This document shows positions 19,259-20,544 of a stretch of DNA of 20,544 bases, in pieces. How positions within the stretch are numbered: position 1 is the first letter of the stretch; each line of letters starts with the position of its first letter. The stretch lies in IMG/VR virus record IMGVR_UViG_2529293044_000023. One strand, given 5' to 3'. Made by a program: the position numbers and the translations under genes. The stretch is from a virus. Its lineage: Duplodnaviria; Heunggongvirae; Uroviricota; Caudoviricetes. Under the pieces are notes generated by a model. That model did not search any database. It was not told the origin of the DNA and saw only the letters and a list, made by a program, of their open reading frames with translations.

Positions 19259-20544
19259 ATGAGTAACGCATCATACCCGACAGGCGTTGAAAACCATGGA
19301 GGATCACTCCGTATATGGTTTCACTATAATGGCAAACGTGTCAGAGAAAACCTCGGTGTTCCTGACACAGCCAAAAACCGGAAGATCGCTGGTGAACTTC
19401 GCACTTCCGTTTGTTTTGCAATCAGAATGGGGAGTTTCGACTACGCCGCGCAGTTCCCTAATTCCCCTAACCTGAAACACTTTGGTCTGGGAAAAAGAGA
19501 GATAACCGTTAAGGCACTTTCGGAAAAATGGTTGGACCTTAAGAAAATTGAGATTTGTGCGAATGCACTTAACCGTTACCAGTCAGTAATTAAAAACATG
19601 TTACCAATGTTAGGTGAAAAAAACTGGTTTCATCCATAACAAAAGAGGATTTACTTTTCGTAAGGAGAGATTTGTTGACCGGTTACCAAAAGCTTTCTAA
19701 TGGAAAGACTTCTTCCATAAAAGGGCGCTCAGTGGTCACGGTAAACTACTATATGACAACCATAGCTGGAATGTTTCAATTTGCAACAGATAATGGTTAT
19801 ACCTCAGGAAACCCATTTAACGGTCTGGCTCCCTTAAAAAAGTCCAAGGTAAAACCAGATCCTCTCACCCGTGACGAATTTATTCGTTTTATTGAGGCTT
19901 GCCGTCATCAACAAACAAAAAACCTGTGGATTCTCGCTGTATACACGGGTATTCGTCACGGGGAGTTGGTATCGCTGGCATGGGAAGATATAGACCTTAA
20001 AGCAAGGACTATAACCATCCGTAGAAATTATACAAAACTTGGCGAATTCACTCCACCAAAAACCGATGCAGGCACCGGAAGGACAATTCATCTGGTTCAA
20101 CCAGCTATTGATGCTCTTAAAAGCCAGGCGGAAATGACCATGCTTGGAAAGCAACATTCTGTAGAGGTGAAGCAGAGGGAATATGGGAGAACTGCTGTGC
20201 ATAAATGCACTTTTGTTTTTAGTCCTCAGGTAACAAAACAGCAGCAGTTGTCCGGACCTCACTACAAGGTTGACTCCATCAGGGAGTCATGGACAAGTAT
20301 CTTAAAACGCGCAGGTCTGAGACACAGAAAATCGTACCAATCCAGGCATACTTATGCATGCTGGTCACTTGCCGCAGGAGCTAATCCTAGTTTTATCGCA
20401 AGCCAGATGGGCCACACAAACGCACAAATGGTATTCAATGTTTACGGAGCATGGATGAAAGACAACAATCACGAACAGATAGAACTCCTTAACAAAAGAC
20501 TATCTGAAAGTGTCCCATGTATGCCCCATAAGAAAGTTGGGTAA
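19259..20544 (+). pseudogene. int: Tyrosine integrase, split into two frames by a single-base frameshift in an A7 run
   Basis: N-terminal ORF (19259-19639) has an arm-type DNA-binding domain; C-terminal ORF (frame open from 19618) has the catalytic residues (R...HxxR...Y: IRHGEL, SRHTYACW, GHTNAQMVFNVYGAW). Frames switch at AAAAAAA (19617-19623); adding one A restores a continuous 428-codon ORF reading ...MLGEKKLVSSITKEDLLFV.... Confidence 0.8.

Follow-up and report, generated by a model that had tools for sequence, protein, structure and literature searches.

At its 3′ end, the window (the whole stretch of 20,544 nucleotides that was analyzed) carries the integration module of a prophage, in which an excisionase gene is followed by an integrase gene (int) that is read as two open reading frames (ORFs). 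The features on which the analysis turns are the following:

18971 to 19225, plus strand: xis (excisionase, DUF1233), intact, just upstream of int; Pfam PF06806, E = 2.5e-29.
19259 to 19639, plus strand: 5′ ORF of int (ORF1), 126 aa, with its TAA stop at 19637–19639; the exact product is found in public contigs.
19615 to 19617, plus strand: TGA closing the catalytic-domain frame upstream, from three-frame translation.
19617 to 19623, plus strand: A7 run, A8 in intact alleles, the site of a one-base contraction as judged from the sequence and from allele comparison.
19618 to 19624, plus strand: heptamer A_AAA_AAC in phase with ORF1 (codons AAA at 19619–19621 and AAC at 19622–19624).
19618 to 20544, plus strand: 3′ frame of int, with the remainder of the core-binding domain and the catalytic domain (Pfam PF00589); stop at 20542–20544.
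19662 to 19677, plus strand: AAGGAG (19662–19667) with TTG at 19672 and TTG at 19675, a fortuitous pair of ribosome-binding site (RBS) and start codon.

The coordinates and numbers in the earlier note on this DNA, which had placed the A7 run at 19617–19623, the end of ORF1 at 19639 and the second frame from 19618, all hold, and insertion of a single A does produce one 428-codon ORF, as that note had claimed for an A8 run. ORF1 comprises the arm-binding domain (Arm-DNA-bind_2, PF12167, residues 7–70, E = 8e-25), some 50 residues from the core-binding region and five out-of-frame residues (NWFHP), its frame across the tract reading GGT GAA AAA AAC TGG TTT CAT CCA TAA. The second frame, which encodes KLVSSITKEDLLFVRRDLLTGYQ and remains open from 19618 through the window's final base, matches Phage_integrase (PF00589, E = 2e-18). 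Because the TGA at 19615–19617 shuts the catalytic frame, the switch between frames must fall within 19618–19639, to which the overlap of the two is restricted. The break thereby lies inside the core-binding region, for which there is a weak Pfam SAM-like match at residues 83–131. All catalytic residues are intact, namely R233 (codon 19954–19956), K268 (20059–20061), R363 (20344–20346), H386 (20413–20415) and Y396 (20443–20445), and these R, K, R, H and Y positions are conserved in an alignment to Tn1549 Int (6EMY). The arm domain and the catalytic residues typical of heterobivalent tyrosine integrases (lambda Int/IntR type) are thus both present, and the one continuous frame of such proteins is broken in the window at 19617–19623. 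The upstream xis has its equivalent in an 84-aa gene called in sister loci and in the gene annotated xisR in CE10. Judged from its sequence, the split gene is an ordinary lambdoid integrase targeting mlrA (yehV), a heterobivalent tyrosine recombinase.

Comparison with intact orthologous integrases, a check proposed in the earlier note, identifies window 19259–20544 as the CE10 gene (WP_000063649.1) minus one A; a one-base gap is the sole difference from CE10, AR_0013 and others, and the CE10 int is annotated as an intact tyrosine recombinase between xisR and mlrA. Once repaired, the 428-aa protein is the same as WP_000063649.1 and has exact matches on at least 1000 public contigs. A chance pair of ORFs is ruled out by the domain matches, by this exact match of the repaired protein and by the identity to the CE10 gene. 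Hundreds of E. coli chromosomes match the segment 19200–20544 at 99.9% identity, and every top match listed spans 1346, not 1345, bases. In the intact A8 form the tract is read as the codons GAA AAA AAA, that is, E120, K121 and K122. Among RefSeq complete E. coli genomes, an 82-mer with A8 was found exactly in 406 records and with substitutions, still at 82 nt, in 43, with two records in between, so that tract length differs in only 1–2 of 451 records (~0.2–0.4%) and the continuous int frame is present in 406 + 43 of them. The corresponding A7 81-mer occurs in exactly one complete record, FDAARGOS_943, where PGAP labels the gene ‘frameshifted’. On these allele comparisons, A8 is shown to be the intact, ancestral state, and the two-ORF form is not conserved.

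The xis–int segment is 98.7–99.9% identical at the nucleotide level to those of known lambdoid or Stx prophages at mlrA (yehV), namely VT1-Sakai/Sp15, BP-4795, YYZ-2008 and CE10. For the modules of VT1-Sakai, BP-4795, YYZ-2008 and further phages alone, the range is 98.7–99.7%. The window shares the domain order of their mlrA-type integrases and differs in having one A fewer in the A8 run, so that int is read as two ORFs. Its backbone, unlike those of these four prophages, is phi467-like.

The earlier note had described the integrase as inactivated. The break in the frame stands, whereas full inactivation is probably too absolute a claim, as the in-phase A_AAA_AAC could restore the frame. Ribosomes reading the A7 allele would stop at 19639 after 126 residues, retaining the arm-binding domain and truncating the core-binding domain, and the catalytic ORF would no longer be read in frame. 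The heptamer does, however, have the X_XXY_YYZ form of the slippery sites of programmed −1 frameshift genes. A −1 slip after AAC would continue with CTG and yield full-length 428-aa Int(K122N), with the predicted junction peptide MLGEKNLVSSITK for a ribosomal slip versus MLGEKKLVSSITK for transcriptional slippage. An addition of one A by RNA polymerase would be a smaller possible contribution to frame repair; transcriptional slippage does not become efficient below about nine A's or T's (PMC1088944; PMC5574713).

A close known parallel is the insA/insB′ pair of IS1, which has the same A_AAA_AAC in the same phase to the upstream ORF, a short overlap and no strong stimulator. IS1 lacks an established stimulator; its two-ORF form is conserved and functional, whereas that of int is a rare, derived state of a gene that is normally a single ORF. 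The A6C motif of IS1 supports ~1.6–2% frameshifting (PMC12903888), and A_AA.A_AA.C without stimulators gives >0.10%, an efficiency described as low in E. coli (PMC4066793). No downstream stimulatory RNA structure was found in int, the 80-nt fold being no better than that of shuffled sequences (z = +1.15). An SD-like AGGTGA abuts the heptamer directly upstream and is not the 10–14 nt away at which it could act as a stimulator; from dnaX and prfB, such abutting spacing is not expected to favor a −1 shift. Nor is the two-ORF arrangement conserved: non-A8 tracts account for only 1–2 of the 451 complete-genome records, and the yecE-type integrase, 81% identical, reads GAA AAA CGT CTT at this point, with a run of A5 only. 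The rarity of the split form, the A5 run of this homologue and the lack of a stimulatory structure exclude a conserved programmed frameshift. Slippage by something of the order of 0.1–2% of ribosomes would nevertheless make some full-length Int and render the block leaky. ‘Strongly reduced’ therefore describes the expected state better than ‘inactivated’, a residual ~0.1–2% of full-length integrase being plausible from the motif. Excision from mlrA, and any re-integration, would be predicted to drop sharply; the phenotype is perhaps an excision that is strongly reduced and not zero.

Alternatively, the two ORFs might together form a functional split integrase, in which the 126-aa arm fragment and a re-initiated catalytic fragment of 289 or 290 aa act in trans. 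AAGGAG-N4/7-TTG lies 23–33 nt past the ORF1 stop and may allow re-initiation, gene callers in public assemblies report 289- or 290-aa products from the TTG pair, and the catalytic residues of such a fragment are all intact. It would, however, lack the arm domain, and with the break inside the core-binding domain, neither fragment would contain residues 122–139. Intact alleles also have the RBS and TTG, as ordinary codons, and the split form is not conserved. In lambda Int, moreover, arm and core binding are needed on one polypeptide to bridge sites, which counts against action in trans. Given these points, a functional split integrase is extremely unlikely.

The contraction is not confined to the window. 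The exact 126-aa truncated product diagnostic of A7 is present on 125 public contigs, the predicted A9 product on 8 and the A10 product on 1, and the predicted A6 product was found on no public contig. In a comparison of full-length int genes (13 A7, including the window, and 67 A8), at least 10 int haplotypes carry A7, and for 8 of them there is an A8 twin with no other difference; the A7 loci sit in different prophage backbones. The contraction must therefore have been recorded independently many times, and descent from one ancestral A7 allele is ruled out by these haplotypes and their A8 twins. The loci of FDAARGOS_943 and of GCA_901482675.2, an independent record with a 3.2-Mb contig, are related but structurally different, and both are A7. 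Sites other than mlrA also harbor the A7 integrase: it adjoins a fimbrial usher/chaperone cluster in L097 and L098 (DECA AIGN and AIGO) and in L118, and a 91%-identical integrase variant in L006 adjoins NleG, NleF and OspG effector genes; this reflects either transfer of the integrase to other sites or rearrangement of the region.

Such recurrence would be produced by mutation and by sequencing error alike, and the two alternatives offered in the earlier note, a genuine mutation or a homopolymer error, are also the two explanations that survive here. Homopolymer deletions are frequent elsewhere in the assemblies behind some A7 records: L003 and L004 (GCA_0515908x5) have more deletions in 5–6-nt runs of flanking chromosomal genes, and L120 has 13 further homopolymer gaps. 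A7 is over-represented in older draft and IMG/VR records, being present in 3 of 72 (4%) matching IMG/VR contigs versus ~0.2% of RefSeq complete genomes (1–2 of 451 records departing from A8 in any way), which is the pattern expected from technology-dependent errors. Against this, eight other A7 loci show no indel across 4.8–6 kb of flank, and the tract is the only indel relative to CE10 over 1.6–6.3 kb in the run-based contigs L114, L115, L118, L121, L122, L123 and L099; in L123 (ERR12735462), also A7, there are zero mismatches to CE10 over 6.35 kb. Among the A7 records elsewhere, both genuine and artefactual cases occur. Natural variation in its length shows the A8 tract to be unstable, and mutation and sequencing error each account for part of its character as a recurrent hotspot.

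In the window itself, 11 long homopolymers (A/T of at least 7, G/C of at least 6) were compared with those of near-identical relatives, and length differs only at the A7 of int. There is no other indel relative to F719 over 12.7 kb, or relative to GCA_900448265.1 and its relatives over ~18 kb, and these indel-free stretches include A7/T7 runs as well as three further A8 runs, at the following positions:

4337 to 4344: A8 run.
5160 to 5167: A8 run.
5296 to 5303: A8 run.

A generally noisy window assembly is thus rejected, there being no other indels relative to its relatives. In phage phi467 (L012, LN997803), runs differ from those at window positions 4835 (A6 versus A7 in the window), 5295 (A9 versus A8) and 15901 (T3 versus T4), and at least two genes that are split in phi467 are whole both in complete genomes and in the window; these single-base differences are likely homopolymer errors or mutations in LN997803. 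Since at two or more of these three positions it is the window whose ORF is longer and unbroken, the comparison argues against a generally error-prone source for the window.

In the immediate lineage of the window, the same prophage is resident at mlrA in a set of near-identical genomes, marked by the nonsense mutation W52* at 18007–18009. Its records divide by tract length as follows:

A7: the window; DECA AIEW, AIFA and AIFC; run ERR294526 (L115).
A8: GCA_900448265.1; GCA_965140055.1; DECA AFJB; DECA AIEZ.

DECA AIFC matches contig L114, re-assembled from run SRR490664, at every variable site. The closest genome to the window, GCA_900448265.1, is 100% identical to it over 10.6 kb and yet has A8. 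With SNPs polarized by means of outgroups, a derived base at 7914 is common to the window (A7) and GCA_900448265.1 (A8), and another is common to AIFA (A7) and GCA_965140055.1 (A8). Since both pairs are mixed in tract length, A7 and A8 records are intermixed on the SNP tree, and at least three tract changes are needed against ~17 SNPs per 20 kb. That number seems high for real mutation; the excess may reflect project- or platform-specific miscalls, or unusually fast real slippage. Three of the A7 records of the lineage come from one sequencing project, the DECA collection. A lineage-wide mutator was considered and set aside, there being no other indels among 10 members over 12–20 kb, although this argument is weak, with one A8 run in the shared region.

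These observations bear differently on the two surviving explanations. If the call were an artefact, the strain would truly have A8 and an intact integrase, and the consensus would be one base short in the homopolymer. The interleaving on the SNP tree, the single project behind three A7 records, the A8 of the closest relative, which counts against an in-cell origin of A7, and the noisy or older records described above all favor this account. It is at odds with the unchanged length of the other homopolymers of the window relative to several near-identical genomes, and with the presence of A7 in clean contigs from independent runs, including ERR294526 (L115) and the SRR490664 re-assembly (L114) of the same lineage. 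The absence of other indels in the window and these clean, independent A7 records lead us to lean toward a genuine mutation. From the assembled sequences, we infer that A8 probably contracted to A7 in the cell, by replication strand slippage; a miscalled base is a less probable explanation, though one to be taken seriously.

A genuine contraction could also be more than an accident. On one reading the tract is a selected, reversible switch, either as an A8 contingency locus or with A7 acting as a low-expression form of Int through IS1-like −1 frameshifting, so that excision is tuned. Tract length does change in both directions (A7, A9 and A10), at least three times inside one near-clonal lineage, A_AAA_AAC is in phase in the A7 form, and excision from mlrA has a known curli and biofilm phenotype (PMC5931665, PMC7192596). 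A coding mononucleotide run that recurrently changes length both ways is likewise the trait shared with homopolymer contingency loci, from which this run differs in being short (8 nt), in that its off state is rare in complete genomes and in that sequencing error confounds its changes; no sign of selection or of high switching rates at the A8 tract was found in this comparison. Eight A's are short for classical phase variation. When the tract is considered as a phase-variable locus, the at least three changes in one lineage thus stand beside an off state in ~0.2–0.4% of complete genomes and off calls of which some are artefacts. The recurrence is therefore partly artefactual, the tract is not kept in the 81%-identical yecE-type integrase (GAA AAA CGT) and no stimulatory RNA structure was found. 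A selected switch is very unlikely on this evidence. A related proposal, that a hypermutable tract alternates between A8 (full Int) and A7 (~1% Int by IS1-like frameshifting) and so sets the rate at which the prophage leaves mlrA, appears only slightly less improbable. Were it true, the tract would govern how often curli and biofilm capacity return, and the interleaved A7 and A8 of this O55:H6-type lineage would be real switching, not error. The preferred reading remains a one-base slippage in the cell that left a weakened integrase.

Every sister locus of this prophage has mlrA–yohO–yehW after int, and int in sister loci directly adjoins a truncated mlrA; the window itself ends at the int stop. 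Prophages at mlrA suppress curli and biofilm formation, and their excision restores native mlrA (PMC5931665; PMC7192596). The suggestion in the earlier note that the mutation fixes the prophage in place holds only in part, as immobility is not attributable to int alone: an IS21-family insertion and a nonsense mutation are also present. The IS21-family element (IstA, 340 aa; IstB, 260 aa) occupies 10787–12740, is flanked by a CTGAA target duplication (10782–10786 and 12741–12745) and interrupts a 97-aa gene of the early operon that adjoins a cro-like gene. The IS–prophage junction 40-mer has no match in species-representative genomes, and the products of the IS-truncated ORFs (87 and 85 aa) have no exact protein record. 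In GCA_900448265.1, a 100%-identical copy in inverted orientation, with its own CCTTG duplication, is placed at 10666/10667, a distance of 120 bp; the two positions indicate that near-identical prophages acquired the element twice independently, or that it made a local hop. The nonsense mutation W52* (G18008A, TGG to TAG, 18007–18009) splits a 209-aa gene at 17854–18483 that is intact in phi467 and L010; it is common to all members of the mlrA-resident lineage and is thereby useful as a marker. The prophage is thus already decaying apart from int, which speaks for a genuine lesion in int as well. In L092 and L100 (DECA, same prophage), a 1.1-kb deletion corresponding to window 7373–8471 fuses the primase and helicase genes and is further evidence of decay of the prophage lineage.

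The prophage is a 99%-identical, stx-negative relative of the Stx2f phage phi467; the window lacks the 2.5-kb tRNA-stxA-stxB cassette that would lie between Q and the holin gene, and has no tRNA genes. The segments concerned are window 4051–4337 and 4465–5397. Next to the site lies an AT-rich, 310-aa ORF on the opposite strand, which belongs to PHROG 7003 (unknown function), has no Pfam match and is intact despite five homopolymers of 7–8 nt. None of the RefSeq complete genomes and phage records covers 80% or more of the window. A mosaic junction lies at ~18966: the same backbone carries a yecE-targeting xis–int in E. coli F719 and L091, and the lineage of the window carries the mlrA-targeting module instead, an exchange of integration modules between near-identical prophages.

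The lesion in int, a frameshift by one base in a homopolymer, is ordinary, affects a well-known integrase and involves no new mechanism. The A7 allele is already known from public genomes, where it carries a frameshifted or defective annotation: the PGAP-labelled ‘frameshifted’ integrase pseudogenes of cryptic prophages include the same allele type in FDAARGOS_943, and DECA genomes name the 3′ ORF of int ‘Qin prophage predicted defective integrase’. Compared with degenerate pseudogenes, the int of the window has no degenerative change beyond the single base. Interest is mild and lies only in the recurrent hotspot and in an IS1-like slippery site that should be leaky. For annotation, the A8 run repeatedly gives rise to ‘frameshifted integrase’ calls, of which some are real and others artefacts, and predictions of prophage mobility from the integrity of int should check reads at the tract and allow for low-level rescue at A_AAA_AAC. 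For the host, because a prophage at mlrA silences MlrA until it is restored by excision, an integrase that is dead or weak would immobilize the prophage and lock in the state in which curli and biofilm formation are off.
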